From assembly GCF_055900595.2 (NCBI RefSeq), contig NZ_CM148325.1: DNA of 64,000 nucleotides; one strand, given 5' to 3'. The notes beneath the pieces were generated by a model, which worked only from the letters and a program-made list of their open reading frames with translations, searched no databases and was not told the origin of the DNA. The position numbers were made by a program, and so were the translations under genes. This document shows, in pieces, positions 945 through 43,751 of this stretch. Position 1 is the first letter of the stretch; each line of letters begins with the position of its first letter.

Positions 945-3416
945 TTAAGAATCAGCCTGACTCGGGATCAGTTTTTGCCAGATAACTGAAACGTATTTTG
1001 CCTGGTAACGGGCGTCATCAAGTGCATTATGCCGCTCACCTTCGAATGGAATAGCCGTTCTGGCATCGAAGTCTATGGCTTTCCCCAGCTCAACGATTGT
1101 GCGTACATCGCGATCGTTGTAGTAACGCCACGGGCAGGGGATCCCCTGCCGTTCGTATGAACGGCGCAAAATCGTGTTGTCGAAGTTGGCTCCATTTCCC
1201 CAGACCTGAACAAAAAATTCACCGGAGTTTTCGTCGATAAATTCCCGCAATTGTAACAGTGCATCATCTAACGGGATTTCATCGGTCATAATGGCAGACT
1301 GCGCTTCACGTGATTGCTTCAGCCACCATTTAATGACGTCACGATCAATGACTCCGCCAGCAGTATTCAGATCTATGGTCTTGCTAAATTCCGGTCCCAT
1401 ATCTCCGGTTTGTGGATCGAAAAATATTGCGCCTATTGAGATAATCGGGGCATCAGGATTTTTTCCCATGGTTTCAAGGTCGATCATTAGATGGTCACAC
1501 GTCCTGCTGGTGGATGTGATAACGTGATGACCGTTCACCGTAATTAAGGGATCTGCCGTCTCGCCAGTTTCACTATCGCTGGCGTGATCCTGAGCGCTGC
1601 CAGCATTCTCCTTGTGTGGATGTTCAGCGCCTTCCATTTTCTCCGAATCGTCTTCCTGAACTTCAACCTGGTTCTTGTCATCGAATGTTTCCTGGTATGT
1701 TGCGTCGCCCATCACCGCACCACATTCAGGGCAGTTGCCGCCGCCGGTCTGACCGTAGGCGGTGCAGATTTTTTCCGCTTCCTGTTGCGCTACTGGCTCA
1801 GGTTGTTTCGTTTCTGGCTCGTTTTGTAACGCATTTGGGCTGTTTTGTTCCGCTTTCTGGTCGTTCTGTTCCGTTTCTTGCTGGTTCTGGTTCACTGAAT
1901 CGCGGGTTTCAATCCCCTTCACCCATTTCGGATCATTCGGATCGCTAATCCCTGCAACAAATTCACCACGTGATACAGCAAGCAACTGATTGGCGTCAGG
2001 CTGGCTGATATTGGCTGCCTGCATAATTTTGTTTACTTCGTCAGCGGTAATTTTTACCGGCTCTGGTTGTGCGGTCGTGTCAGATGCACCAGTATTTTGT
2101 TGTGAACCTGAGTATGTACCGTTTTTGCGGGCGAAATATTCTTCTTTCGTGATTTCAGTAGCCCCGGCAGCCAGCGCCTTATCCAGACCAGAAAGTTTGT
2201 TTGCGCGACCGTATTTTTCGCCATCCTTGTCGGTAAAGAGGAAGTAGAACGGCCCCTCACGCTCTACAGATGGTTCGACTTCCACTTTGCATTCAGTTTT
2301 TTCGTTGCCCGGAATTGCCGTTTCCACTGCATCAGTTTCTGGTACTGGCGACGAGAGAGTATCAGTTGCGCTCTGATTTGTTCCTTCATCTTCAAACACG
2401 CCCTTTGTAGTCAGGTATTTAGTAATGTATTTGTTCAGTGCCACAGGGTCTTTGTGAATGTCGATCGGACGTTCACGGACAAGGCCAAAAATAGTCTGGC
2501 GGTCGTAGCGAAGGGCATCAGGCTGTTTGCGCATTGATGCCGAGATACGCTTCCAGTCTTCGCGGTCGTTGTCGATAACTTCATTTTTTGCCCAGCGATG
2601 GATGCTGCCGTCAATGTTTCCGGCATCCACATCACCAGGCCAGAGAGCGTAGGCCAGTTCGTCATCCAGTGTTTTCCATGTCTGCTTGTATTCGCGATGA
2701 GTGGCAGCAATGACCGGGTTGATTTTTCCTGTTGAATTTTCAGTGTGCTGTTGATTGGCTCTGGCGCGGGCGAGATCAACAACAGACGTGTATTTTCCGG
2801 TTTCCTTGCGTTCATTTTCGCGACGTTTTTTCCAGATGCGCATCTCTGCCTGAATTTCGGGCCATTTAGCTCCAGGATTACATTTATGTTTAACCCACCC
2901 GATGGCATGCAGCTTAAGCTCCGGATACATGGCGTTAACTTCTGGCATTTTCATCAACGCTTCAACGATATGTCCGTCGAATGTTGCCATGTCTTCCTGC
3001 AACAATTCCTGCGCGCTAATCACCATATCAACGGTGATGTTTTCACATGTGTCGAACTTAACCATGACAGCGTTCTGTACTTCAGGGGCCAGCTTGTCAA
3101 AAGTGACGTTCATCGGATCTGATTCAGTCTCAACCGGGACAAAGGAAGCAGACTCCTCATCCCAGCGGTTTTCCTGCATATATTCAGCATCCCAGGAATC
3201 GAGGGCAGGGCGGGGTATACCGGGTTTATCCTCGCAAACAAGAAATTTATAAGCGCAGTCCTGAGCAACCGGATAATGTTCCAGGAATTGCCAGTGAAAT
3301 TTTGCGCGGGCGCGACGTTCATCACCGGCTTCAATGGCAGTGGCTACAGCGATTGCACCTTCTTCCTTTATTGCCTGTTCGTCCGGAATGGCGGCGCAAA
3401 TAAAGACTTTACTCAT
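945..3416 (-). CDS. Exonuclease-like early protein (823 aa) with C-terminal DnaQ/DEDDh-type 3'-5' exonuclease domain
   Basis: C-terminal motifs HLMIDLETMG, GANFDNTIL and HNALDDARYQAKY; central CPECG zinc-ribbon-like motif; Q/E-rich linker; position equivalent to lambda exo region. Confidence 0.75.
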   Translation of the reverse strand: MSKVFICAAIPDEQAIKEEGAIAVATAIEAGDERRARAKFHWQFLEHYPVAQDCAYKFLVCEDKPGIPRPALDSWDAEYMQENRWDEESASFVPVETESDPMNVTFDKLAPEVQNAVMVKFDTCENITVDMVISAQELLQEDMATFDGHIVEALMKMPEVNAMYPELKLHAIGWVKHKCNPGAKWPEIQAEMRIWKKRRENERKETGKYTSVVDLARARANQQHTENSTGKINPVIAATHREYKQTWKTLDDELAYALWPGDVDAGNIDGSIHRWAKNEVIDNDREDWKRISASMRKQPDALRYDRQTIFGLVRERPIDIHKDPVALNKYITKYLTTKGVFEDEGTNQSATDTLSSPVPETDAVETAIPGNEKTECKVEVEPSVEREGPFYFLFTDKDGEKYGRANKLSGLDKALAAGATEITKEEYFARKNGTYSGSQQNTGASDTTAQPEPVKITADEVNKIMQAANISQPDANQLLAVSRGEFVAGISDPNDPKWVKGIETRDSVNQNQQETEQNDQKAEQNSPNALQNEPETKQPEPVAQQEAEKICTAYGQTGGGNCPECGAVMGDATYQETFDDKNQVEVQEDDSEKMEGAEHPHKENAGSAQDHASDSETGETADPLITVNGHHVITSTSRTCDHLMIDLETMGKNPDAPIISIGAIFFDPQTGDMGPEFSKTIDLNTAGGVIDRDVIKWWLKQSREAQSAIMTDEIPLDDALLQLREFIDENSGEFFVQVWGNGANFDNTILRRSYERQGIPCPWRYYNDRDVRTIVELGKAIDFDARTAIPFEGERHNALDDARYQAKYVSVIWQKLIPSQADS

Positions 3417-4057: not shown

Positions 4058-4113
4058 AAACGGCGGCAGAGCAGTCACGGAGTAAAACTGATACCGCTAA
4101 ACGTCACCAGAAA
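4058..4113 (-). ncRNA. dicF: DicF small RNA (ftsZ-targeting sRNA of Qin-type prophages)
   Basis: Minus-strand sequence ttttctggtgacgtttagcggtatcagttttactccgtgactgctctgccgccg followed by a T-run; near-identical to DicF as I recall it. Confidence 0.8.
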
Positions 4114-5397: not shown

Positions 5398-6036
5398 TTA
5401 AATATCTTTTTGAATTTTAAAGCATACTCCCAATATGCAAGATAGATCATCCAGCATAATTGAAGGGTAGCGAGGATTCGTGGGGACTAAAAGAATATCC
5501 GGCCCTTCTATCTCCAGTTTGCGAATGACAGGCGTTGTGGTCCCTTTGGGTAAGGCAAGGACAATATTTCCTGGTTGTACGATTCGATCGGGATCAACAA
5601 AAACTGTTGAACCATTTGGGATGGAAACTCCACCACCAGATGTCGACATACTGTCACTCTCTAGAACAACAGCAAAGGTATTGGCCGGGATTTCTCCGAC
5701 AAGCTGCACACAAGAGGTTATTGAGGAATTTTTCATATAATCACTCCAGCTTGCTGCCTGCTGAAGTGATAGTAGCGGAACCGTTTTTATCGGCGGTAAA
5801 GATAGATCAAGCGAATCACCTGTATTTAACTCTCCTCCATTAAGAAGCCAATTTTCGTTTACTTTCAATATCTTTGCCAGTGAGCTTATGTAACGCGAGG
5901 ACGGCGCTCCTCCACCGTTCATCCATTGACTTACGGAGCCTTTTGATGCGCCAGTGGCATTGACAAGGTCTTTGCCTTTCAAGTTTAGCGCATGCATACG
6001 TTGGGTTATGCGTTCAGATATTGTTTGCTTGTTCAT
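5398..6036 (-). CDS. CI-like prophage repressor (HTH plus S24 LexA-like autopeptidase domain)
   Basis: 212 aa; N-terminal HTH region (LKGKDLVNATGASKGSVSQWMNG), C-terminal S24-like region; divergent from the cro-like gene. Confidence 0.85.
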   Translation of the reverse strand: MNKQTISERITQRMHALNLKGKDLVNATGASKGSVSQWMNGGGAPSSRYISSLAKILKVNENWLLNGGELNTGDSLDLSLPPIKTVPLLSLQQAASWSDYMKNSSITSCVQLVGEIPANTFAVVLESDSMSTSGGGVSIPNGSTVFVDPDRIVQPGNIVLALPKGTTTPVIRKLEIEGPDILLVPTNPRYPSIMLDDLSCILGVCFKIQKDI

Positions 6037-9669: not shown

Positions 9670-9823
9670 TTTTATATTGGCGAGGTGACGTGAGTTAAGT
9701 AGAATTGCTGCGGGTGCTTGAGGCTATCTGCCTCAGGCATGAACACCAACGGCAGATAGAGAAAAGCCCCAGTTAACATTACGCGTCCTGCAAGACGCTT
9801 AACATTAATCTGAGGCCAATTTC

Positions 9824-10036
9824 ATGCTAGACACATGTAGGTTAGCCTCTTACGTGCCGGAAGGCAAGGAGAAGCAGGCTATGAAGCAGCAAAAGGCGAT
9901 GTTAATCGCCCTGATCGTCATCTGTTTAACCGTCATAGTGACGGCACTGGTAACGAGGAAAGACCTCTGCGAGGTACGAATCCGAACCGGCCAGACGGAG
10001 GTCGCTGTCTTCACAGCTTACGAACCTGAGGAGTAA
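9824..10036 (+). CDS. mok: mok-like reading frame overlapping hok
   Basis: 70-aa frame that starts upstream of and reads through hok, as in hok/sok loci. Confidence 0.5.
   Translation: MLDTCRLASYVPEGKEKQAMKQQKAMLIALIVICLTVIVTALVTRKDLCEVRIRTGQTEVAVFTAYEPEE
9881..10036 (+). CDS. hok: Hok/Gef-family type I toxin
   Basis: 51 aa MKQQKAMLIALIVICLTVIVTALVTRKDLCEVRIRTGQTEVAVFTAYEPEE, Hok family (HokD/RelF-like as I recall it). Confidence 0.85.
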   Translation: MKQQKAMLIALIVICLTVIVTALVTRKDLCEVRIRTGQTEVAVFTAYEPEE

Positions 10037-10202: not shown

Positions 10203-10817
10203 ATGCAGAATTTATCTCAACAGTTGTTAGAAGCATATGACAAGGAGTGCCGCAAAGAGCTTTCGATCGCGTTAGCACAGGCTTATCTTCATTCGCATAT
10301 GAAGGCAAAAGAGTTTGGTTCTTTTTGGGCTCAAGCACAGTCATATTTGCGCTGGTTTTATGCCGATGCATTGCTTGAGAATGCGGCTAAGCGTGTGGGG
10401 CTGGATTTTGAAGTCGGTAGCAATGCTGCTAAAAATTGTAAACACATTGCGATTCACTCGAACAACTGGAAAATGACGGCACATCATTTATCGGGTAATG
10501 CGCCACTTCCTAAGCAGGCATTGTATAGAGCTGTTTACGCTAATCAAAATTATGAATTGAATTTTGGGGATGAAAATGCCGACTCCCTGGATGGGAGAGC
10601 GTCTGGTGGACATGTTTATATGTTACATGATGGCAGTAATCAGCACTTGTCCAAACTGAATTTAACTGTTCCTTCTTCGGATAATTACGGGATTCTTTAT
10701 ACTGAGTCTTTACCAATTATGACGATGGTAGAAGTTGAAGCAGAAAATGTGGATTCTGAGATTGAAGATAAAATCAAGATTCTTACCGAACAAATAATTA
10801 AATCACAGCAATCATGA
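10203..10817 (+). CDS. Hypothetical protein (204 aa), first gene of a two-gene accessory cassette
   Basis: ORF with AAGGA RBS; no recognisable domain; stop overlaps the start of the next gene (ATGA). Confidence 0.6.
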   Translation: MQNLSQQLLEAYDKECRKELSIALAQAYLHSHMKAKEFGSFWAQAQSYLRWFYADALLENAAKRVGLDFEVGSNAAKNCKHIAIHSNNWKMTAHHLSGNAPLPKQALYRAVYANQNYELNFGDENADSLDGRASGGHVYMLHDGSNQHLSKLNLTVPSSDNYGILYTESLPIMTMVEVEAENVDSEIEDKIKILTEQIIKSQQS

Positions 10818-11959
10818 GCATGAATATCGCACAAACACCATTTACTGATAAATCGTTTAATCCTCGTCGCCTTGAGGAGGCAAGAGAGGCAAAAGGGTTG
10901 ACGATGGCTGAACTTGCCAGAGTGCTCAATATTTCAAGACAAGCTATTTCGTCATTTGAGAAGGGGTTGAAGTCTCCCTCTGCTGATACACTTTCTGCAA
11001 TAGCCAAGGTGTTAGGATTTCCAGAACGATTTTTCTTAGCCTCCAGTGCTTCTCCATCTCTGGAGGGGGCGATTCATTTTAGAAGTCGTTCAACTGCGAC
11101 CAAAAAGGCTCGAGTTACAGGGAAAACACGTGGGCGTTGGGCGGCATTAATATTGGATGAATGTCTAAAATATGCTCAATTACCAGATGTGGTTCTGCCT
11201 GAATTCGATATTATTGATTTTGAGGTTCTGTCTCTATCTGATATTGAGGATATGTCCACCCAATTAAGGCGTTTTTGGGGGTTAGGTGATGGTCCAATAC
11301 TCAATTTAACTAGACTTGTTGAAAATAAAGGAATCGTGGTTTCTCATTTACCTTCTGGTGAGAAAGTTGATGCCTTTTCGTTCTGGCATAATGGGCGGCC
11401 TTTAATTATGTTAGATAGCTCGAAGACGGCTGTTCGCATGCGATTTAGTCTTGCTCATGAACTTGGCCATTTAATTATGCATAGGGCAGTGGAGGATGAC
11501 TACCTGAATGATAAAGAATTATTCGACCTGGTGGAGTTGCAGGCCGATTATTTTGCCTCCAGCTTTTTAATGCCAGCCACCACTTTCGGGCGTGAATTTT
11601 ATAGTCCAAATTTATCAGCGTTAGAACGATTAAAACTACGTTGGATTACATCTATCGGTAGTATTGCCATGAGGAGTCATAGCCTTAAGTTAATCAGCGA
11701 TAATCAGAAAAGCTATATATTTAAGCAATTAGCGCCATTCCATCGTAGGGAGCCGTTAGATGATGCAATCCCAAAAGAAGAGCCTGAGTTACTTAATAAG
11801 TTACTTTTACTTCTTGATAAGCATTCAATCATAAAGGTAACTGAGTTAACTGATATCTTTGCTCTTCCCTTAAATGAGTTATCTGCAATTACACGATTTA
11901 AAGAATCAGATATGATTCATTCTGACAATGTTATTTCATTTACCATAAAACAAAAATAA
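10814..11959 (+). CDS. HTH_XRE - ImmA/IrrE (COG2856, M78-like) zinc metallopeptidase fusion protein
   Basis: N-terminal XRE HTH (LTMAELARVLNISRQAISSFEKG); HEXXH motif HELGHLIMH at 11456-11470 followed by ELQADYFASSFLMP, typical of ImmA/IrrE. Confidence 0.8.
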   Translation: MSMNIAQTPFTDKSFNPRRLEEAREAKGLTMAELARVLNISRQAISSFEKGLKSPSADTLSAIAKVLGFPERFFLASSASPSLEGAIHFRSRSTATKKARVTGKTRGRWAALILDECLKYAQLPDVVLPEFDIIDFEVLSLSDIEDMSTQLRRFWGLGDGPILNLTRLVENKGIVVSHLPSGEKVDAFSFWHNGRPLIMLDSSKTAVRMRFSLAHELGHLIMHRAVEDDYLNDKELFDLVELQADYFASSFLMPATTFGREFYSPNLSALERLKLRWITSIGSIAMRSHSLKLISDNQKSYIFKQLAPFHRREPLDDAIPKEEPELLNKLLLLLDKHSIIKVTELTDIFALPLNELSAITRFKESDMIHSDNVISFTIKQK

Positions 11960-13412: not shown

Positions 13413-13790
13413 ATGCGTGATATTCAGATGGTTCTTGAGCGTTGGGGGGCATGGGCGGCTAATAATCATGAAGATGTGACCTGGTCGTCCATTGCCGCTG
13501 GTTTTAAGGGATTAATTCCTTCAAAAGTAAGATCTCGTCCGCAATGCTGTGACGATGACGCGATGATCATTTGTGAATGTATGGCTCGCCTGAGAAAAAA
13601 CAACAGCGATTTACATGGTTTATTGGTGGACTATTATGTCGGCGGCATGACTTTTATGGCGCTTGCACGTAAGCATGGGCGATCTGATTGTTGGGTTGGC
13701 AGGATGCTCCAGAAAGCTGAGGGCGTAGTGGAGGGCATGCTGATGGTATTGGATCTCCGATTGGAGATGGATGCTGATTGTTCGAAATAA
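13413..13790 (+). CDS. Late antiterminator Q (phage 82/21 QuuD type)
   Basis: [31 protein letters not shown]...[16 protein letters not shown] matches the QuuD-like Q family. Confidence 0.85.
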
Positions 13791-13889
13791 TTAAAGGAAA
13801 AGTTGCTGTCTGATTGTCATTAGTCTAACATTTTAAATGTTGGAATCGCAACGTAGTTATTATCATATAACAGCTTGTTTCCTGATTTA

Positions 13890-13918
13890 GCCAGCCTCCC
13901 CAAAGGCTGGTTTTTTTC
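13890..13918 (+). terminator. Candidate tR' terminator downstream of Q
   Basis: agccagcctccccaaaggctggttttttt. Confidence 0.6.
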
Positions 13919-13945: not shown

Positions 13946-14476
13946 TTATTGTTTAACCCATAATAATTCATTGACATTGAATCCCAACTTTTGAGCGGTT
14001 CGCACATAGTCTGCTTTTACTTTATCTGGAATAGTTGGGGTCCTTGCCAGAATCCATAGGTATTCTCTGTTCGAACCACTAACAAGAGCATACTTATACT
14101 CATCATCCAGTTTGATTACATTATAGCCACCATAGAAGGGGCCAAAAAACGAAACCTTCAACGCTGCAGTTTTAGTATCTCCAGTAAAGTATGCTTTACC
14201 TTCGCTCTCGCTCCATTTATTTTTCGTTGGATCGTATCCACGGTTAAGTACACGAATCCCTCCGTCGTTCCGTTTTCCATAAGTAGCGCTGACCTGCTCC
14301 AGACCACGTTCGAACCGGTTCTCGAGGCGAGCTATTTCATACCATTTTCCGAGGTAGCGGTTGGCGTCAAAATTTGTAATCGGCTGCACACCTTTAGGTG
14401 GTGTCGGGGCCTTACATGCTATAAGAGTGAAAGAGAGTGCAATGCCAGTCAACACAGGCCATAACTTCATAATCAA
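13946..14476 (-). CDS. blc: Bacterial lipocalin Blc-like outer-membrane lipoprotein (moron)
   Basis: Lipobox LIAC; KWYEIARLENRFERGLEQV and FFGPFYGGYNVI motifs match Blc. Confidence 0.85.
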   Translation of the reverse strand: MIMKLWPVLTGIALSFTLIACKAPTPPKGVQPITNFDANRYLGKWYEIARLENRFERGLEQVSATYGKRNDGGIRVLNRGYDPTKNKWSESEGKAYFTGDTKTAALKVSFFGPFYGGYNVIKLDDEYKYALVSGSNREYLWILARTPTIPDKVKADYVRTAQKLGFNVNELLWVKQ

Positions 14477-14662
14477 TCCTGTACTTTTGATAGTTGAGAG
14501 TAAGTATGAAAGATAGATGATTACGACCGATCACTTAAAGAACTTTCATACTATATTAGGAATAGTCCATAACAGAAAAATTGTCAGTGATGACGTCAGA
14601 AAGGCAATTTATTCCGTGCACTACACAGTTTATGTGTTAATGAATTAGTCAAGGGGGAGGAT

Positions 14663-15622
14663 ATGATAAAAAAACCTGTGATTGGAATCAGCGGTTGTTT
14701 GGCCGGTTCTGCTGTTCGTTTTGATGGTGGTCACAAAAGAGCTGACTTTTTAATGGACAAATTAGTGGAATGGGTAACATTCAGACCAGTATGTCCGGAA
14801 ATGGCTATAGGGCTGCCAGTTCCGCGTCCTGCTCTACGTCTTGTGCGCTCGAAGCAAGGAAATATACGGATGTGTTTCAGCCACGACCAGAATGAGGATG
14901 TGACAGAGAGAATGACAGAGTTTAGTCGTTCTTATATGCACAAATTAAAGGATGTATCGGGGTTTGTGGTTTGTGCTAAATCTCCCAGCTGTGGCATGGA
15001 GCGCGTGCGTGTCTATGATGAAAATGGTAATCGAGGTCGTAAAGATGGAGTGGGACTATTTACGAGCACTTTGATGGAAAAGTTTTCCTGGCTACCGGTT
15101 GAAGAGGATGGGCGATTACATGATCCAGTGCTTCGTGAGAATTTTGTTGAAAGAGTTTTTGCTTTGCATGAGCTCAATCACCTTTACAAGGAGAAATTAT
15201 CAAGAAGAGAGTTATTAGCTTTTCATAGTCGTTATAAGCTTCAGTTGTTGGCGCATAGTCAGGCAGGCTATAAAGATATGGGACCATTTGTGGCTGCAAT
15301 ACACGAGTGGGCGGACCTTGAATCATACTTTGAGGTGTATCGTGATAAGCTGATGGCGATTCTCAGAAAACCTGCATCACGTAAAAATCACACGAATGTG
15401 CTGATGCATATACAGGGGTATTTTAGTAATTACTTAAGTACACGCCAGCGTAAAGAGTTGACCGAGGTTATACTTAACTATCGCTTTGGCACATTGCCTC
15501 TTCTTGCGCCGTTGACTCTGCTGAAGCATTATCTGGGTGAGTATCCTAATGATTACTTGCTTACACAGAATTACTTCGATCCCTATCCGGAAGAACTGGC
15601 TCTAAGACTGATGGTGAATTAA
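14663..15622 (+). CDS. DUF523 (TudS-like) / DUF1722 two-domain protein (YbgA family)
   Basis: N-terminal GISGCLAG with further conserved Cys; C-terminal DUF1722-like half. Confidence 0.65.
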   Translation: MIKKPVIGISGCLAGSAVRFDGGHKRADFLMDKLVEWVTFRPVCPEMAIGLPVPRPALRLVRSKQGNIRMCFSHDQNEDVTERMTEFSRSYMHKLKDVSGFVVCAKSPSCGMERVRVYDENGNRGRKDGVGLFTSTLMEKFSWLPVEEDGRLHDPVLRENFVERVFALHELNHLYKEKLSRRELLAFHSRYKLQLLAHSQAGYKDMGPFVAAIHEWADLESYFEVYRDKLMAILRKPASRKNHTNVLMHIQGYFSNYLSTRQRKELTEVILNYRFGTLPLLAPLTLLKHYLGEYPNDYLLTQNYFDPYPEELALRLMVN

Positions 15623-16019
15623 CTGTATGCGATATCATCTGAAAGTGATGAGTTCCTGTATGCAGGATATTTACAATCGTAAAAACTACACTATGATACC
15701 CATAGTGTCAGTTTGTATAAAAATCCTGTTCACGCTGAAGAAAACATTGAGATGCAATTTAATGTTGGTAAACATACCAGCCCCAAAAGATTTTATTCAA
15801 TCTGTTTTTATATGAAGATATTTCAAGTGAATATTAAGAGTATATAATATTATTATTGCACGCAGCTATTATAATATAACAGATTAGTTTAATGATTTGT
15901 TTTTTGTGAGTTAAACACATGGTTTTATAGTTGTGATGCAATGAGATTTTCCTTATTGTTGAACTGGCGAATATTGATTTTCCACCTATACTTACCTGGT
16001 GTAACCCCAGTGATATCAG

Positions 16020-16742
16020 GTGGATAATATGCCATACATATGTTCTGTCATTTTGGTGTTGAACTCGTTTGGTGTCCGAATTGGTAAAGAAGATATTTTG
16101 TTTAAAAAAGGAAGTGCTGTCCTCATCGAATACAATTTAAAAGATCTTTTTTCGTCAAATACAGATCATCTAATGATCGTAGATGTTGAGGAGAAAACAG
16201 TTAATGATTTCTTTAAAAACTACACACTCTCACCTTTTTCTGTAAGAAGGTTTTATCCGTCATACTTGATAGTAGAATGTGAAGATTTTTCATTGTTAAG
16301 GAACTTGGTTGCATGCTTGAATTGTGATAGCAAAACCGTGGATGTAGTTAGAAATCAAATATCACTTGCATGTCTTGCTGTCTTATCTTCAGAGAAAATA
16401 GTGCAAAGTTTTTTGTTCGGAAGTCTTAATAGCTTAGGTTGTAAAGTTAAGGCTATTATTCACTCGGATATCTCAGCGTCATGGAGACTTTGTGATATAT
16501 CTTCAAGATTATATATGAGCGAGAGTTTGTTAAAAAGAAAATTAAAAGACGAAGGATTATCGTTTAGTAAATTAATTCTTGAAGAACGAATGATGATGGC
16601 GCAAAGATTATTGATCTACAGTAACCATACTGTCGGCAAGGTGGCGGGAATATGCGGGTATGACAATGCATCATATTTTGTAAGTGTTTTTAGAGGATAT
16701 TTTGGTGTGCCTCCGCACCAATATTTATCAAGATTTTCTTAG
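16020..16742 (+). CDS. AraC-family transcriptional regulator (AppY/YbcM-like moron)
   Basis: C-terminal AraC HTH (ICGYDNASYFVSVFRGYFGVPPHQY); AT-rich flanks. Confidence 0.8.
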   Translation: MDNMPYICSVILVLNSFGVRIGKEDILFKKGSAVLIEYNLKDLFSSNTDHLMIVDVEEKTVNDFFKNYTLSPFSVRRFYPSYLIVECEDFSLLRNLVACLNCDSKTVDVVRNQISLACLAVLSSEKIVQSFLFGSLNSLGCKVKAIIHSDISASWRLCDISSRLYMSESLLKRKLKDEGLSFSKLILEERMMMAQRLLIYSNHTVGKVAGICGYDNASYFVSVFRGYFGVPPHQYLSRFS

Positions 16743-16932
16743 AAGATATGATGTGATGGCATTTTATAAAGTTATTTTTTGAAGTGTAAGATTATACGAT
16801 ATTTTTAGCTACGCCAGAATAATTGCTGGCGTTTTTCTTTTTGAATAGATGTTCGGGCCTTACGCTAATGTAACTTCTTTCCTTCTTCGAACCAAACCGT
16901 GTACACCATCCGTTATCTGCGGAGGTGAGGCT

Positions 16933-17148
16933 ATGAAATCCATGGATAAGTTAACAACGGGCATCGCCTACAGCACCTCTGCAGGCAGTGCTGGCTACTG
17001 GTTTTTACAGTTGCTCGATAAAGTCACGCCCTCACAGTGGGCGGCAATAGGTGTATTGGGTAGTCTGGTATTTGGCATGCTGACGTATCTGACAAACCTT
17101 TATTTCAAGATTAAAGAAGACAGGCGTAAGGTTGCGAGAAGAGAGTAA
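16933..17148 (+). CDS. Phage 21 S21-type pinholin with dual-start motif
   Basis: [31 protein letters not shown]...IKEDRRK close to S21/EssD; strong RBS GGAGGTGAGG; second ATG at 16942. Confidence 0.85.
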
Positions 17149-17152
17149 TCCA

Positions 17153-17704
17153 ATGACTCAAGACTATGAACTGGTTGTGAAAGGAGTTCGCAATTTTGAG
17201 AATAAAGTGGCGGTAACTGTAGCCTTACGGGACAAAAAACACTTTGACGGTGAAATTTTTGACCTGGACATCTCGCTGGACCGTGTTGAAGGTGCCGCGC
17301 TGGAGTTTTATGAGGCAGCAGCCAGAAGGAGCATCAGACAGGTCTTCCTGGATGTTGCTGCCGGGTTATGTGAAGGGGATGAGCAGTCGCCGGAAAAGCG
17401 CCCCATAATTTTAGAGGCGCAGAATGTGTGGATAACCTACAAAGGAAAGCTACCGGGAAGAATTACTGGTTCTCTGAAGACGCCACCGACGGCATTGCGG
17501 TCAGAAAAAGATGATATTGAATCGCCCATTGAAAAACTGGAGGGCAGCGTCGCTGATCTGAATAAAAAATTGTCGGTGCTGATTCCTTCTGAAGATGAAA
17601 AAAAACGCCGCGATGAGCAGTTTGCGGCGTTTTACGATTATTGCATTGAAGTTACTCGCAGGAATTTTGTGAAGATTTTTGAGGAGGGTAAATCTCTTCA
17701 GTAA
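17153..17704 (+). CDS. YdfR-like (DUF1327) protein with long C-terminal extension
   Basis: MTQDYELVVKGVRNFENKV... matches the YdfR N-terminus as I recall it; about 183 aa here. Confidence 0.6.
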   Translation: MTQDYELVVKGVRNFENKVAVTVALRDKKHFDGEIFDLDISLDRVEGAALEFYEAAARRSIRQVFLDVAAGLCEGDEQSPEKRPIILEAQNVWITYKGKLPGRITGSLKTPPTALRSEKDDIESPIEKLEGSVADLNKKLSVLIPSEDEKKRRDEQFAAFYDYCIEVTRRNFVKIFEEGKSLQ

Positions 17705-17912
17705 GCTTATTGGCGGACGCTGCAATTAATTCAGGAAGGTCCGCAAGGTCATCTGTCAGTGGATATGATGAAAAATCGGCGGCAGTTCTGTTAAGAAGCG
17801 CTTTAACTAATTCCTTTTCCTTCTCCGGCAACAAGTTGATTAGAGCTACGACTGCTTGCCTGAGTGCGATTAAATCAGCAAAAGTTTGTTTAGGTAGATT
17901 TGTGTAATCCAT
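17652..17912 (-). CDS. Hypothetical protein (86 aa) antisense inside the lysis cassette
   Basis: ORF with GAGG RBS 6 nt upstream of its ATG; non-repetitive sequence; 3' end overlaps the ydfR-like gene convergently. Confidence 0.45.
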   Translation of the reverse strand: MDYTNLPKQTFADLIALRQAVVALINLLPEKEKELVKALLNRTAADFSSYPLTDDLADLPELIAASANKLTEEIYPPQKSSQNSCE

Positions 17913-19053: not shown

Positions 19054-19416
19054 ATTAATATTAAATCGGATTATTTTTAGCGCTGAATGTGAAATTTAAA
19101 TAAAAAGGACTCTTCCATGAGTCAAAATCCTTGAAATCTTAAGGGTAAGATAAAAGGTCATTAGACAGAATGACACGTTTTATTAATAAATAAAGCTATT
19201 GTTTCATTCGTGTGTTTTTCTTTACAAAAGTAATCCTTGCTATGGTTGGTTAATCATGCGTTAATGGTGTTCTGGTTTGTTACAAAATTATCTGAAGCAG
19301 TCATTGTTATAATTTTATTATTTGTACCTCTTGAGATTTCCTTGTTGGTTTTTCTCTCTGATATTTTTTTTCGGACCATTCTGCCCAAGGGCTAACTTCT
19401 TCAAAAGGTAATAATG

Positions 19417-19629
19417 ATGTCTAACAAAATGACTGGTTTAGTGAAATGGTTTAACCCTGAAAAAGGTTTTGGTTTCATCACGCCGAAAGATGGTAGCAAA
19501 GATGTGTTTGTCCATTTCTCAGCTATTCAGAGCAACGATTTCAAAACGTTAACTGAGAATCAGGAAGTCGAATTTGGTATTGAGAACGGACCTAAAGGCC
19601 CCGCGGCTGTTCATGTTGTGGCACTTTGA
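19417..19629 (+). CDS. cspI: Cold shock protein (CspI-like)
   Basis: [38 protein letters not shown]... cold-shock domain. Confidence 0.9.
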
Positions 19630-19828
19630 GGTAGATAATATTACAAACCATATTCACTTTAGATGCCCGTGTTGCCATGGTTCTCAGTATAGAACATCAT
19701 CTTTTGATGTTTCTGACAGGAATCCTTTCGGGGCAAAATGTATCTTTTGTAAATCAATGATGATTACATTTGATAATATTTCACAATACTTAAATGTTAG
19801 CCGTCTATCGTTAGATTTAAGAAAGTGA
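19613..19828 (+). CDS. Possible small Cys4 zinc-ribbon protein
   Basis: [10 protein letters not shown]...CIFCKS motif; weak RBS; start overlaps the csp stop. Confidence 0.3.
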
Positions 19829-39970: not shown

Positions 39971-40570
39971 ATGCGTAAAGTTTGTGCAGCCATTTTGTCC
40001 GCAGCCATCTGTCTGTCCGTATCCGGTGCGCCTGCATGGGCATCTGAACATCAGTCCACGCTGAGCGCGGGGTATCTTCATGCCTCGACGAACGTTCCCG
40101 GCAGCGATGATCTTAACGGGATTAACATGAAATACCGTTATGAGTTTACGGACACACTGGGGCTGGTGACGTCATTCAGCTATGCAGGAGACAAGAATCG
40201 CCAGCTTACCCGTTACAGCAATACCCGCTGGCATGAAGATTCCGTGCGTAACCGCTGGTTCAGCGTGATGGTGGGGCCGTCTGTGCGCGTGAATGAATGG
40301 TTCAGCGCGTATGCGATGGCGGGTATGGCTTACAGCCGTGTGTCGACTTTTTCCGGGGATTATCTCCGCGTAACTGACAATAAGGGGAAAACGCACGATG
40401 TGCTGACCGGAAGTGATGACGGTCGCCACAGCAACACGTCTCTGGCGTGGGGAGCTGGCGTGCAGTTTAACCCGACCGAATCCGTGGCCATTGATATTGC
40501 TTATGAAGGCTCCGGCAGTGGTGACTGGCGCACTGACGGTTTCATCGTGGGTGTCGGTTATAAATTCTGA
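39971..40570 (+). CDS. lom: Lom-like outer-membrane protein (Ail/Lom family)
   Basis: Signal peptide plus beta-barrel, ends with aromatic residue; lambda Lom-like. Confidence 0.85.
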
Positions 40571-40596
40571 TTAGCCAGGTAACACAGTGTTATGAC

Positions 40597-40623
40597 AGCC
40601 CGCCGGTTCAGGCGGGCTTTTTG
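40597..40623 (+). terminator. Rho-independent terminator after lom
   Basis: agcccgccggttcaggcgggcttttt. Confidence 0.7.
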
Positions 40624-41330
40624 TGCACAGAAAACCCCCAGCTAGGCTGGGGGTTCCGGAAAGCTTTCAGCTTTGAGCCAGTTATTAAAACCCCTTTTGA
40701 TTTGTTAAAACACCTTGCGGTCTGGCAACTGCAAGTGTCAAACAAGAAATCAAAAGGGGGTCCCAATGGGGGACGAAAAGAGCTTAGCGCACACCCGCTG
40801 GAACTGTAAATATCACATAGTTTTTGCGCCGAAATACCGAAGACTGGCGTTTTACGGAGAGAAGCGTAGGGCGATAGGCAGTATTTTGAGAAAGCTGTGT
40901 GAGTGGAAAAGCGTACGGATTCTGGAAGCAGAGTGCTGCGCAGATCATATCCATATGCTTGTGGAAATCCCACCCAAAATGAGCGTATCCGGCTTTATGG
41001 GATATCTGAAAGGGAAAAGCAGTCTGATGCTTTACGAGCAGTTTGGGGATTTGAAATTCAAATACAGAAACAGGGAGTTCTGGTGCCGAGGGTACTATGT
41101 CGATACGGTGGGTAAGAACACGGCGAAGATACAGGACTACATAAAGCACCAGCTTGAAGAGGATAAAATGGGGGAGCAGTTATCGATTCCATATCCGGGC
41201 AGCCCGTTTACGGGCCGTAAGTAACGAAGTTGAATGCAAATGTCAGATCGTATGCGCCTGTTAGGGCGCGGCTGGTAACAGAGCCTTACAGGCGCATTTG
41301 AAAAACCTCCGGCTATGCCGGAGGATATTT
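40621..41330 (+). mobile_element. IS200-family insertion sequence (about 710 bp, boundaries approximate)
   Basis: Left-end hairpin cccccagctaggctggggg, second stem-loop over the RBS, tnpA, right-end hairpin cctccggctatgccggagg. Confidence 0.8.
40766..41224 (+). CDS. tnpA: IS200 transposase TnpA (HUH Y1 transposase)
   Basis: MGDEKSLAHTRWNCKYHIVFAPKYRR...HIHMLVEIPPKMSVS matches IS200 TnpA. Confidence 0.9.
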   Translation: MGDEKSLAHTRWNCKYHIVFAPKYRRLAFYGEKRRAIGSILRKLCEWKSVRILEAECCADHIHMLVEIPPKMSVSGFMGYLKGKSSLMLYEQFGDLKFKYRNREFWCRGYYVDTVGKNTAKIQDYIKHQLEEDKMGEQLSIPYPGSPFTGRK

Positions 41331-41345
41331 ATTTGTGGAGTGGAT

Positions 41346-43751
41346 ATGGCAGCAGTAAAAATCTCAGGTGTGCTGAAAGATGGTGCGGGAAAACCAATAC
41401 AGAACTGCACTATTCAACTGAAGGCAAAGCGTAACAGCACCACGGTACTGGTGAACACGGTGGCTTCTGAAAATCCGGATGAAGCCGGACGTTACAGCAT
41501 GGATGTTGAGTATGGCCAGTACAGCGTCACCCTGCTGGTTGAAGGTTTTCCGCCTTCACATGCCGGGACCATTACCGTCTATGAAGGCTCCAGACCAGGT
41601 ACGCTGAATGATTTTCTCGGTGCCATGACGGAAGATGATGTCATGCCGGAGGCATTGCGTCGTTTTGAGGCAATGGTGGAAGAAGTGGCACGCAACGCCG
41701 AAGCCGCCTCTCAGAGCGCAGCGGCGGCAAAGAAATCCGAAACTGCAGCGGCATCATCAAAGAACGCGGCGAAAACCTCAGAAACGAATGCAGCTAATAG
41801 TGCACAGGCGGCAGCGACCTCAAAGACTGCATCGGCAAACTCCGCGACAGCAGCCAAAAAATCAGAAACCAACGCGAAAAATAGCGAGACAGCCGCAAAG
41901 ACGAGCGAAACCAACGCAAAGTCCAGCCAGACGGCAGCGAAAACCAGCGAAACGAATGCCAAAGCCAGTGAAACTGCGGCAAAAAACAGCCAGGTTGCAG
42001 CAGCCCAAAGCGAGAGCGCGGCAGCCGGTTCTGCGACTTCAGCAGCTGGATCAGCAACTGCTGCGGCTAACAGCCAGAAAGCTGCGAAGACGAGTGAAAC
42101 TAACGCAAAGTCCAGCCAGACGGCAGCGAAGACCAGCGAAACGAATGCCAAAACCAGCGAAACTGCGGCGAAAAACAGTCAGGATGCAGCAGCCCAAAGC
42201 GAGAGTGCTGCAGCTGGTTCTGCAAGCGCGGCGGCTGCTTCTGCCACTGCATCAGCTAACAGTCAAAAAGCAGCAAAAACCAGTGAAACCAACGCAAAGG
42301 CGAGCGAGACTGCGGCGGCGAACTCGGCGCAAGCATCGGCAGCAAGCCAGACAGCAGCTAAAGCAAGTGAAGACGCAGCCAGAGAGTATGCAAGCCAGGC
42401 AGCGGAGCCGTATAAACAAGTTTTGCAGCCGTTGCCCGATGTGTGGATACCGTTTAATGATTCACTGGATATGATTACGGGCTTTTCGCCATCATATAAA
42501 AAAATTGTTATTGGCGACGATGAAATAACAATGCCTGGCGACAAGATTGTAAAGTTTAAACGCGCATCGAAAGCAACTTACATTAATAAATCTGGTGTGC
42601 TGACAGAGGCTGCCATTGACGAGCCACGATTTGAACGTGATGGCCTGCTTATTGAGGGGCAAAGAACTAACCTGCTAATCAATTCAACAAATCCGACTAA
42701 ATGGAACAAGTCGTCAAATATGATCTTAAGTGCATCAGGTGTAGATGATTTCGGATTCCAGTACGCAAAATTTACATTAAAACCAGAAATGGTAGGGCAA
42801 ATTTCAGCGATTAACATAGTAACCGTTTCCGGCAGTAAAGGTTTTGATGTAACAGGCGGAGAAAAGTATGTAACCATATCATGCAGGGTGCAAAGTGGCA
42901 CTCCAAATTTAAGATGCCGATTACGATTTGAAAACTATGATGGTTCTACCTACACATTCTTAGGTGACGCTTACTTAAATACGACAGATTTATCTATTGA
43001 TAAGACGGGTGGTGCCGCTAATCGCATTACTGCAAGGGCTGTTAAAGATGAAGCAAGCAAATGGATCTTTTTTGAGGCGACAATTAAGGCACTTGATACA
43101 GAAAATATGATAGGTGGAATGGTTCAGTATGCCCCGGCAAAAGGAGTGGGCACTGGCGCGGATGATTATATTTATATTGCGACCCCTCAAGTTGAAGGTG
43201 GGGCGTGCGCTTCATCGTTTATTATAACAGGCGCATCCCCTGTAACACGCGCCAGCGATATTGTGACGGTCCCCATTTCTCTAAATTGGTGCAATCCCGC
43301 TATTAGTTCATTAGCAGAAGTTAATACCAATTGGGATGAATCGCCAAACAAAGAAGGTAGCGCACGTATTCTTAATATTTCCACTACGGGAGATACAACT
43401 GAAATTGCAGATGAAAGTTATATGTATTTGGGGTATACATCTTTGGGAGCACGCGCAATCATTACAAATGGTAAAGGCACTAAAATAGAATATAAAAGCG
43501 TTATAGAACGACCAGAGAGAAAAAGCATTATCGGCTTTAGATTCACAGAAAGTCGAGAATTGTGTGTTGTGGTTAACGGTAATATTGGTGCTAAGGTAGT
43601 TTCTCCTTATAAAAAACACAAATATACAGGAGGCTTCATTAATATTGGTGGTCAATCATCATCCGGCAACCGTCACCTATTTGGACACGTTCGAAATCTG
43701 CGTATTTGGCACAAGGCATTGACTGATGCTCAGATGGGGGAGTCAATCTAA
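41346..43751 (+). CDS. Side tail fibre protein (Stf-like)
   Basis: N-terminus MAAVKISGVLKDGAGKPIQNCTIQLKAKRNSTTV matches Stf; Ala/Ser/Thr-rich repeats; divergent C-terminal domain. Confidence 0.85.
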   Translation: MAAVKISGVLKDGAGKPIQNCTIQLKAKRNSTTVLVNTVASENPDEAGRYSMDVEYGQYSVTLLVEGFPPSHAGTITVYEGSRPGTLNDFLGAMTEDDVMPEALRRFEAMVEEVARNAEAASQSAAAAKKSETAAASSKNAAKTSETNAANSAQAAATSKTASANSATAAKKSETNAKNSETAAKTSETNAKSSQTAAKTSETNAKASETAAKNSQVAAAQSESAAAGSATSAAGSATAAANSQKAAKTSETNAKSSQTAAKTSETNAKTSETAAKNSQDAAAQSESAAAGSASAAAASATASANSQKAAKTSETNAKASETAAANSAQASAASQTAAKASEDAAREYASQAAEPYKQVLQPLPDVWIPFNDSLDMITGFSPSYKKIVIGDDEITMPGDKIVKFKRASKATYINKSGVLTEAAIDEPRFERDGLLIEGQRTNLLINSTNPTKWNKSSNMILSASGVDDFGFQYAKFTLKPEMVGQISAINIVTVSGSKGFDVTGGEKYVTISCRVQSGTPNLRCRLRFENYDGSTYTFLGDAYLNTTDLSIDKTGGAANRITARAVKDEASKWIFFEATIKALDTENMIGGMVQYAPAKGVGTGADDYIYIATPQVEGGACASSFIITGASPVTRASDIVTVPISLNWCNPAISSLAEVNTNWDESPNKEGSARILNISTTGDTTEIADESYMYLGYTSLGARAIITNGKGTKIEYKSVIERPERKSIIGFRFTESRELCVVVNGNIGAKVVSPYKKHKYTGGFINIGGQSSSGNRHLFGHVRNLRIWHKALTDAQMGESI
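41901..42278 (+). repeat. Tandem direct repeat (about 189 bp x2) inside stf
   Basis: acgagcgaaaccaacgcaaagtccagccagacggcagcgaaaaccagcgaaacgaatgcc... repeated with few substitutions. Confidence 0.75.

Follow-up and report, generated by a model that had tools for sequence, protein, structure and literature searches.

A lambdoid prophage cassette with genes for a lipocalin, a predicted tRNA 4-thiouridine desulfidase (RudS) and a PatE/AppY-type regulator between antiterminator Q and the holin

RudS proteins, in which a TudS desulfidase is fused to a DUF1722 domain, strip 4-thiouridine (s4U) from tRNA, and one of them, RudS_vir, is encoded by Escherichia phage 1H12 as gp66 and has Cys12, Cys44 and Cys110 as its cluster ligands (Jamontas et al., 2024, NAR; PMC11417400). 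All RudS proteins expressed in E. coli, a species stated to be without RudS, lowered the s4U content of its tRNA, RudS_vir included, and overexpression of RudS_KT cut the ultraviolet A (UVA) growth delay from ~105 to ~60 min (PMC11417400). The same paper leaves the lipocalin (blc) and AraC-type regulator (araC) genes that neighbor RudS_vir, and its role in the phage, undiscussed. The blc gene is a common accessory gene (moron) of lambda phages, already listed as such in 2020 (PMC6969025), and AraC/XylS-family regulators are also carried by lambdoid prophages; PatE, PsrB and AppY are reported to bind or activate gadE and hdeA and to raise acid survival (PMC10877973, PMC10057817). Here we analyzed a 64,000-nucleotide stretch of contig NZ_CM148325.1 (NCBI RefSeq assembly GCF_055900595.2; referred to as the window, with positions counted from its first letter), in which blc, rudS and araC genes lie between the antiterminator gene Q and the holin gene of a lambdoid prophage.

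A check of the open reading frames (ORFs) of the window gave three intact frames in this interval, for a lipocalin on the minus strand and for a TudS-DUF1722 protein and an AraC/XylS-family regulator on the plus strand (Table 1). A preliminary description of the window, made from its letters, had proposed these three identities and their placement between Q and the lysis cassette, and had named decay into pseudogenes as a ground for doubt; the Pfam, NCBIfam and PHROG matches and the two border genes bear out both proposals, and no frame is broken. The RefSeq calls cited below were taken from the genome of E. coli strain Ecol_316, which matches the window at 100% identity across the 3.9 kb compared. 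The explanation that we consider probable is a moron region of two modules, a mobilized blc-rudS pair and an AraC-type regulator, for which we propose expression by read-through from Q, a benefit under UVA and acid-resistance genes as targets of the regulator. Two of the three genes are already in the literature and the third is a member of an established group of regulators carried by prophages, and the trio was not found as a described unit in literature searches; new here are the derivation of blc and rudS from one chromosomal locus, the loss of a MerR gene, the two-module structure and the prevalence figures.

The cassette and its RudS protein

The cassette lies between conserved modules and is replaced in close relatives, as expected of a moron region. 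In the plaque-forming phage 4A7, homology to the window breaks at 13772 and resumes at 16913, with a porin gene in place of the cassette, which agrees with the earlier suggestion that none of the three genes is required for phage growth; many other phages share Q and the holin with this prophage and carry a porin gene as cargo. In lambdoid phages, this slot downstream of Q (the Q-to-S slot) also holds stx1/stx2 or nmpC/ompD-type porin genes, and such cargo is likewise dispensable and swapped module for module, as seen with the porin of 4A7 and with the AraC gene, tRNA genes and stx2 of phiSTEC1575. The present prophage differs in the kind of its cargo: instead of a toxin or a porin, it encodes a lipocalin, a regulator and a predicted eraser of a tRNA modification. 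No RNA genes were found at 13.8-16.9 kb by Rfam (gathering thresholds) and ARAGORN.

To judge from its domains and residues, the 319-amino-acid protein is a RudS, that is, a [4Fe-4S] tRNA 4-thiouridine desulfidase. Its N-terminal part matches Pfam PF04463 (2-thiour_desulf/DUF523; 1.2e-39, residues 7-149) over the full model, and its C-terminal part matches PF08349 (DUF1722; 9.4e-40, residues 192-309) and the NCBIfam YbgA model (1.9e-56, residues 160-315). The preliminary description had suggested a search for the cysteine triad of the TudS iron-sulfur cluster; Cys12, Cys44 and Cys110 are present and align with Cys10, Cys43 and Cys104 of TudS (PDB 6z92), as do Glu46 and Ser107/Ser109, and these positions are invariant or more than 90% conserved across 41 diverse RudS sequences. 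Ser239-Arg240 is the positional match to the tRNA-contacting Ser243-Arg244 of RudS_KT. The role in thiouridine metabolism that had been suggested for this protein can thereby be sharpened to a predicted eraser of tRNA s4U with an experimentally tested phage ortholog (PMC11417400). Phage 1H12 has the same cassette order (Q, blc, rudS, araC, holin), and its RudS has the same length and cysteine triad; the window carries a different allele, which resides in a prophage integrated at Qin, 1H12 being a free phage.

Chromosomal relatives, spread and selection

The product of blc scores 312.4 bits against the NCBIfam Blc model NF007786 (cut-off 267) and matches E. coli Blc (PDB 3mbt) over residues 20-174 (phmmer, 4.8e-68). 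As its start we preferred ATG 14470 over 14476, since AGGA lies 6 nucleotides upstream, in agreement with RefSeq. The signal peptide, read from the sequence as MKLWPVLTGIALSFTLIAC19-KAPTPP, has the lipobox L-I-A-C19 and aligns with LVVAC-SSPTPP of E. coli Blc, and the lysine at position +2 predicts sorting to the outer membrane; by homology the protein would reside there and bind lipids or lysophospholipids. The fold family, length and lipoprotein signal are those of the chromosomal Blc of E. coli (PDB 1QWD, 2ACO, 3MBT). The phage protein is, however, 72-80% identical to lipocalins that adjoin chromosomal MerR-rudS loci versus ~59% to K-12 Blc, a value that agrees with the 3mbt alignment. By this comparison the phage gene is a paralog that was acquired together with rudS and not a copy of the host gene.

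Close chromosomal relatives of the window RudS (70-76% identical) occur in Citrobacter, Serratia, Klebsiella, Enterobacter, Salmonella and other genera. We scanned one genome per species using a 10-sequence RudS alignment as the query (the 41-sequence alignment is too diverse for this purpose) and obtained 80 loci in Enterobacterales. In 26 of them, termed group A, RudS is 65-76% identical to the window protein. A MerR gene precedes rudS in all 24 group-A loci that have enough flank, an eight-gene operon sits between the two in 11, and nine have blc in divergent orientation to MerR (Enterobacter cloacae, E. quasihormaechei, E. asburiae, Phytobacter, Kosakonia, two Buttiauxella and two other Enterobacter); none of the 24 contains a photolyase gene. 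Serratia rubidaea shows the order lipocalin (minus), MerR/MlrA-like (plus), RudS (plus). In Citrobacter braakii, rudS is the last gene of a nine-gene operon, after genes for SnoaL, SDR, amine oxidase, DUF1365, CFA-synthase-like, DUF2878, a 175-amino-acid protein and DUF3833. The remaining 54 loci form a second paralog group (group B, RudS 53-62% identical) and are without MerR, eight-gene operon and blc neighbors, and in 49 of these 54 a photolyase gene, confirmed with Pfam, lies directly downstream of rudS. As a side observation, the stand-alone DUF1722 gene ybgA of E. coli, upstream of phr, resembles a truncated group-B RudS locus, because rudS directly precedes photolyase in so many species of that group.

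The phage copy has the same order and orientation of blc and rudS as the loci of Enterobacter, Serratia, Kosakonia, Buttiauxella and Phytobacter (Blc 72-80%, RudS 69-76% identical). It differs from the chromosomal arrangement, in which blc and rudS diverge around a MlrA-like MerR gene, by lacking this MerR gene and the optional SnoaL-SDR-amine oxidase-DUF1365-CFA synthase-DUF2878-orf175-DUF3833 operon, and by having an araC gene downstream; no AraC homolog was found near the RudS loci in the Enterobacterales scan. Because phage Blc and RudS are nearest to the RudS-linked chromosomal homologs, the pair derives as one inherited unit from a group-A locus and has lost MerR; the two genes were not picked up independently. 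The preliminary description had spoken of three host-type genes; these are not three unrelated ones, as two of them share this origin. No nucleotide homology to chromosomal loci is left beyond the coding regions: the phage spacer gave none with the chromosomal blc-merR or merR-rudS spacers, and no MerR operator could be traced in it. The chromosomal MerR has MlrA-like as its best family and the light repressor CarH as second-best. In E. cloacae, s4U of tRNA was lost after UVA pre-exposure, and the MerR-RudS locus was linked to this UVA-induced loss and to escape from growth delay (PMC11417400).

Of 5426 complete E. coli genomes, 951 contain the whole Q-to-holin stretch (3.9 kb) at a coverage of at least 80%; by the same threshold, 1046 contain blc-rudS and 995 araC, and the trio occurs in ~18-19%. 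All three genes also occur in the same 12 lambdoid phage records. The recurrence of the same stretch in 951 genomes and 12 phage records shows that these ORFs are not a fortuitous set. Pairwise ratios of nonsynonymous to synonymous divergence (dN/dS), taken against two diverged alleles, ranged from 0.07 to 0.19 for blc, from 0.13 to 0.33 for rudS and from 0.20 to 0.22 for araC, with synonymous divergence (dS) up to 0.6, where the higher values for blc and rudS come from a near-identical allele with very few substitutions. On these ratios, all three genes are under purifying selection. Insertion sequences (IS) have entered some copies. In the Qin prophage of E. coli AS19-RrmA- (NZ_CP027430.1, 5686-9743), rudS is split by IS3 and blc and araC are intact, and in E. 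coli strain CB209 araC is disrupted by IS2. AS19 is a derivative of E. coli B. If relatives of AS19 share its copy, BL21(DE3), the B-lineage strain of the published RudS experiments (PMC11417400), may also have a broken prophage rudS.

The regulator, expression signals and alternative readings

The start of araC was placed at ATG 16029 in preference to 16020; GGTGGA precedes it, and RefSeq agrees. The DNA-binding domain of the 237-amino-acid product is recognized by Pfam HTH_AraC (1e-5) in addition to HTH_18 and by the GadX DNA-binding domain (3.9e-21). In an AlphaFold2 model (mean predicted local distance difference test score 88.9), the best full-length fold matches are Rns, CsvR and ToxT, and Foldseek superimposes the model on the GadX DNA-binding domain 3mkl with a root-mean-square deviation of 1.4-1.7 Å (template modeling score 0.87-0.90). 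The best-ranked NCBIfam models are YdeO and GadX, with scores below their cut-offs, so that we rejected orthology with either; the protein is a relative. It is 48% identical to Sakai ECs_0287 over 237 amino acids, that is, over its full length, and 31% identical to AppY over 95% of AppY; phage Kati carries a regulator that is 100% identical to AppY. ECs_0287 is the sole AraC-type gene of prophage Sp1 at thrW in O157 Sakai, and we infer from this position that it is PatE (Z0321, OI-8/CP-933H). No homolog of the regulator was found in Sakai Sp6. Like PatE, PsrA/PsrB and AppY, the window protein is an AraC/XylS regulator carried by a lambdoid prophage, and it shares with PatE and AppY full-length homology, size, the two-domain fold and a near-identical first recognition helix (SESLLKRKLK, nearly invariant in the family). 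The position differs: the window gene lies between Q and the holin, patE at the right end after the tail-fiber genes and appY at the end of DLP12.

Within the cassette, araC is a separate and more mosaic module than blc-rudS, because it is more AT-rich, more divergent between phage lineages and joined to its neighbors through a mosaic junction. Its GC content is 0.34 (blc 0.44, rudS 0.43, whole window 0.48), with 0.31 in the spacer before it and 0.37 in the spacer after it, so that the AT-rich flanks noted in the preliminary description are real; amino acid identity between lineages is 74-84% for the regulator and 92-99% for Blc and RudS; and a homology break relative to 1H12 lies at 15837/15934. 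We also observed an AraC-type regulator, 39% identical, between Q and the tRNA-stx2 genes of phiSTEC1575-Stx2k (2501-3214), which has an iraM-like anti-adapter gene just before its holin. AraC-type morons therefore recur in the Q-to-S slot, in this phage and in the window prophage.

Predicted expression signals are listed in Table 1. The putative late promoter pR' was not among the hits of a consensus promoter scan. The candidate terminator tR' that follows it is conserved in phages 1H12 and IdasGreatGrand; as a minus-strand terminator for blc the same hairpin was unconvincing (z -0.4, without a U-run) and was rejected. The blc/rudS spacer is no better conserved than coding sequence and showed no repeated candidate operator, and a 10-bp inverted repeat there (14503-14512/14543-14552) was rejected as an operator, since two of its pairs are lost in 1H12 without compensation. 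A 62-amino-acid ORF at 15627-15815 is spurious, being interrupted in 1H12 and IdasGreatGrand.

Table 1. Features of the Q-to-holin region of the prophage, with positions in the window
Feature	Position	Strand	Evidence
Antiterminator Q gene, 125 amino acids, left border	13413..13790	+	phrog_79 "anti-termination protein Q-like" 1.5e-49; RefSeq "antiterminator Q family protein"
Predicted late promoter pR', TTGCTG-17 nt-TAACAT	13803..13831	+	Read by eye; conserved in three cassette-bearing phage lineages
Terminator-like hairpin + U7, candidate tR'	13889..13912	+	Terminator scan; -14.9 kcal/mol, z -4.3, 0/200 shuffles as good
blc-type bacterial lipocalin lipoprotein gene, 174 amino acids	13946..14470	-	Pfam Lipocalin_2 3.1e-43; NCBIfam Blc; PDB 3mbt
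Divergent blc/rudS spacer, 192 bp, GC 0.34	14471..14662		MerR/MlrA-like gene occupies this place in chromosomal relatives; absent here
rudS, TudS (DUF523) + DUF1722 fusion, 319 amino acids	14663..15622	+	Pfam; phrog_3275 5.4e-225; 92.5% amino acid identity to RudS_vir (1H12 gp66), dS 0.29
AT-rich spacer, GC 0.31, mosaic joint ~15837-15934	15623..16028		Composition; homology break; araC promoter presumed here
Palindromic hairpin, possible weak rudS terminator	15688..15708	+	66 nt after rudS stop; both-strand scan; -13.1 kcal/mol, z -5.4; poor U-tract
AraC/XylS-family regulator gene (araC), prophage PatE/AppY group, 237 amino acids	16029..16742	+	Pfam HTH_18 7.2e-16; phrog_1450 8.4e-97
Terminator-like hairpin + U-run between araC and holin	16811..16832	+	Terminator scan; -11.3 kcal/mol, z -2.7; conserved in 1H12, IdasGreatGrand
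Class II holin gene (essQ/essD type), right border, start of lysis cassette	16933..17148	+	RefSeq annotation

In Stx (Shiga toxin) phages, stx is transcribed by Q-dependent read-through from pR'. We propose a similar logic for the two-module cassette. In the lysogen, the candidate tR' would insulate the cassette from pR', and each gene would rely on a weak promoter of its own; upon induction, for example by UV through the SOS response, Q-modified RNA polymerase would read rudS and araC ahead of the lysis genes, in the sense direction for these two and in antisense for blc. The [4Fe-4S] cluster of RudS on Cys12/Cys44/Cys110 would convert s4U at position 8 of tRNA back to uridine, which would reduce UVA-triggered cross-linking of tRNA and hence translation arrest and the stringent response, and E. 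coli lysogens, otherwise without RudS, would gain a trait that Enterobacter has on its chromosome. Blc would be exported as a lipid-binding outer-membrane lipoprotein. The AT-rich araC module, probably silenced by H-NS, would activate gadE and hdeA; by homology to PatE, PsrB and AppY, such host acid-resistance promoters are the most likely targets of the regulator.

Several points weigh against this proposal. In the published assays, RudS_vir desulfidated tRNA less than the other RudS proteins although it was well soluble, and a uracil auxotroph that expressed it had the shortest lag on 4-thiouracil, which makes a small-molecule role of the phage enzyme possible; the UVA experiment was done with RudS_KT and not with the phage enzyme (PMC11417400). 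The IS insertions indicate that loss of rudS or araC is tolerated. The regulator is far under the NCBIfam equivalog cut-offs (YdeO, 112.5 vs 348 bits; GadX, 89.9 vs 500), and 48% identity to PatE is no guarantee of the same targets. The promoter scan gave 13 promoter-like sites versus 11.0 ± 3.5 in shuffled sequence, which is no excess. Since blc is antisense to the late transcript, induction would oppose its expression.

The proposal of two modules has to be weighed against four alternatives and one extension. The regulator could be a local stand-in for the lost MerR that chiefly controls blc and rudS from the divergent spacer, and not host regulons. Consistent with this, the MerR gene of all 24 informative chromosomal loci is gone from the phage and a regulator gene lies directly downstream instead, and all three genes stay together in each of the 12 phage records and in ~95% of the E. 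coli carriers. We nevertheless hold such local control to be unlikely: the composition, identity between lineages and mosaic junction given above set araC apart from the pair, PatE and AppY sit at unrelated prophage positions without blc or rudS and act on host promoters, and the blc/rudS spacer has yielded no repeated operator.

The extension, to which we likewise give little credence, is that the cassette is a transplanted module against UVA or light stress, which discarded its MerR/LitR-like light switch and is now wired to prophage induction. Under it, the UV that induces the SOS response would also drive Q-dependent expression of RudS, late protein synthesis would be spared a translation arrest induced by sunlight, and uninduced E. 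coli lysogens would acquire an Enterobacter-like tolerance of UVA. If true, this would be the first phage to use a tRNA-modification eraser to protect its own lytic program.

It is quite unlikely, in our estimate, that phage RudS acts mainly in the manner of TudS on free 4-thiouracil or 4-thio-UMP, as salvage or detoxification, and feeds uracil nucleotides to phage replication. The two RudS_vir assay results, the short lag on 4-thiouracil and the weaker removal of tRNA s4U despite abundant soluble protein, point in this direction, and the TudS domain is present with all its catalytic residues. Growth support of the kind given by stand-alone TudS, however, was not seen with any RudS variant, the tRNA-binding DUF1722 domain is intact and under purifying selection, and Ser239-Arg240 takes the place of the tRNA-contacting pair of RudS_KT. 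Thiolated free bases appear to be secondary substrates.

A third alternative makes Blc the selected gene, through lysogenic conversion at the outer membrane (lipid homeostasis, serum or stress resistance, phage exclusion), with rudS and araC as hitchhikers. The blc gene is on the opposite strand with a spacer of its own and a downstream hairpin, as would suit a moron expressed in the lysogen; membrane-protein morons are overrepresented in lambda phages of the gut, more than 50% of which have blc (PMC6969025); and, among the three genes, dN/dS is lowest for blc (0.07). We regard this view as improbable, as rudS (0.13) and araC (0.20-0.22) are also under purifying selection, the linkage of rudS to blc recurs on chromosomes, which speaks for a common function and against hitchhiking, and Blc, as well as RudS and the regulator, matched no family among the PADLOC defense models at E ≤ 0.01. 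That the cluster is neutral or decaying cargo without current function, as the IS insertions in rudS (of a B derivative) and in araC (of CB209) and the disrupted lom and truncated side tail fiber of the same prophage could suggest, is highly improbable given the intact frames in the window, dN/dS of 0.07-0.25 across alleles with dS up to 0.6, retention in plaque-forming phages from human gut and environment, and a carriage rate of about one fifth among complete E. coli genomes.

Prophage setting and implications

According to the Ecol_316 annotation, the cassette belongs to a nearly complete lambdoid prophage at the Qin site of E. coli, which extends from an integrase gene beside rspB, before window position 1, to a truncated ydfJ (~48.9 kb). 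The lysozyme and Rz genes stand downstream of the holin, and between the holin and lysozyme genes the lysis cassette has an interruption (17132-17912): a 190-amino-acid ORF (17132-17704) is a truncated YdfR-family pseudogene in RefSeq, an 86-amino-acid ORF lies at 17652-17912 on the minus strand, and neither has a PADLOC match. After Rz (19259-19675 to ~20500) follows a cold-shock cluster, with cspI and its cspA-type thermoregulator 5' untranslated region, a ynfQ/ymcF-like gene, ynfN and gnsB, which is a further accessory block of Qin-type prophages. Upstream of the cassette, PADLOC recognized a Rosmer-type anti-phage pair, RmrT (10203-10817, plus; 7.5e-10) and RmrA (10814-11959, plus; 5.5e-102, full length), whose overlapping, low-GC genes occupy the nin region between hokD/sok and the DUF968 and Q genes. 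The sok/hokD type I toxin-antitoxin locus is at 9712-9886 (plus), and the small RNA DicF with dicB at 4061-4112 (minus); a CI-like repressor at ~5398-5736 (minus) is annotated as a 112-amino-acid "LexA family protein" and is possibly truncated. Toward the other end, at ~39973-42988, lom is split by the IS21-family element ISEc10, inside which lies an Rfam STnc490 match (40633-40756), and the side tail-fiber gene beyond it is truncated.

These results refine the annotation of the cassette and alter no concept. About one fifth of complete E. coli genomes have a predicted RudS through this prophage cassette, even though the species has been described as being without RudS, which matters to studies of tRNA s4U, of the growth delay under UVA and of the stringent response in natural isolates and, through the IS3-broken copy, in B strains. 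The link to the blc-MerR-rudS locus gives the lipocalin and the eraser a common and testable context, photo-oxidative or UVA stress. The preliminary description had suggested that the regulator could reprogram host regulons, and membership in the PatE/AppY group makes this idea concrete by analogy, with the GadE acid-resistance regulon as the candidate target; the regulator would then give prophages a further way into the acid-resistance network of E. coli.

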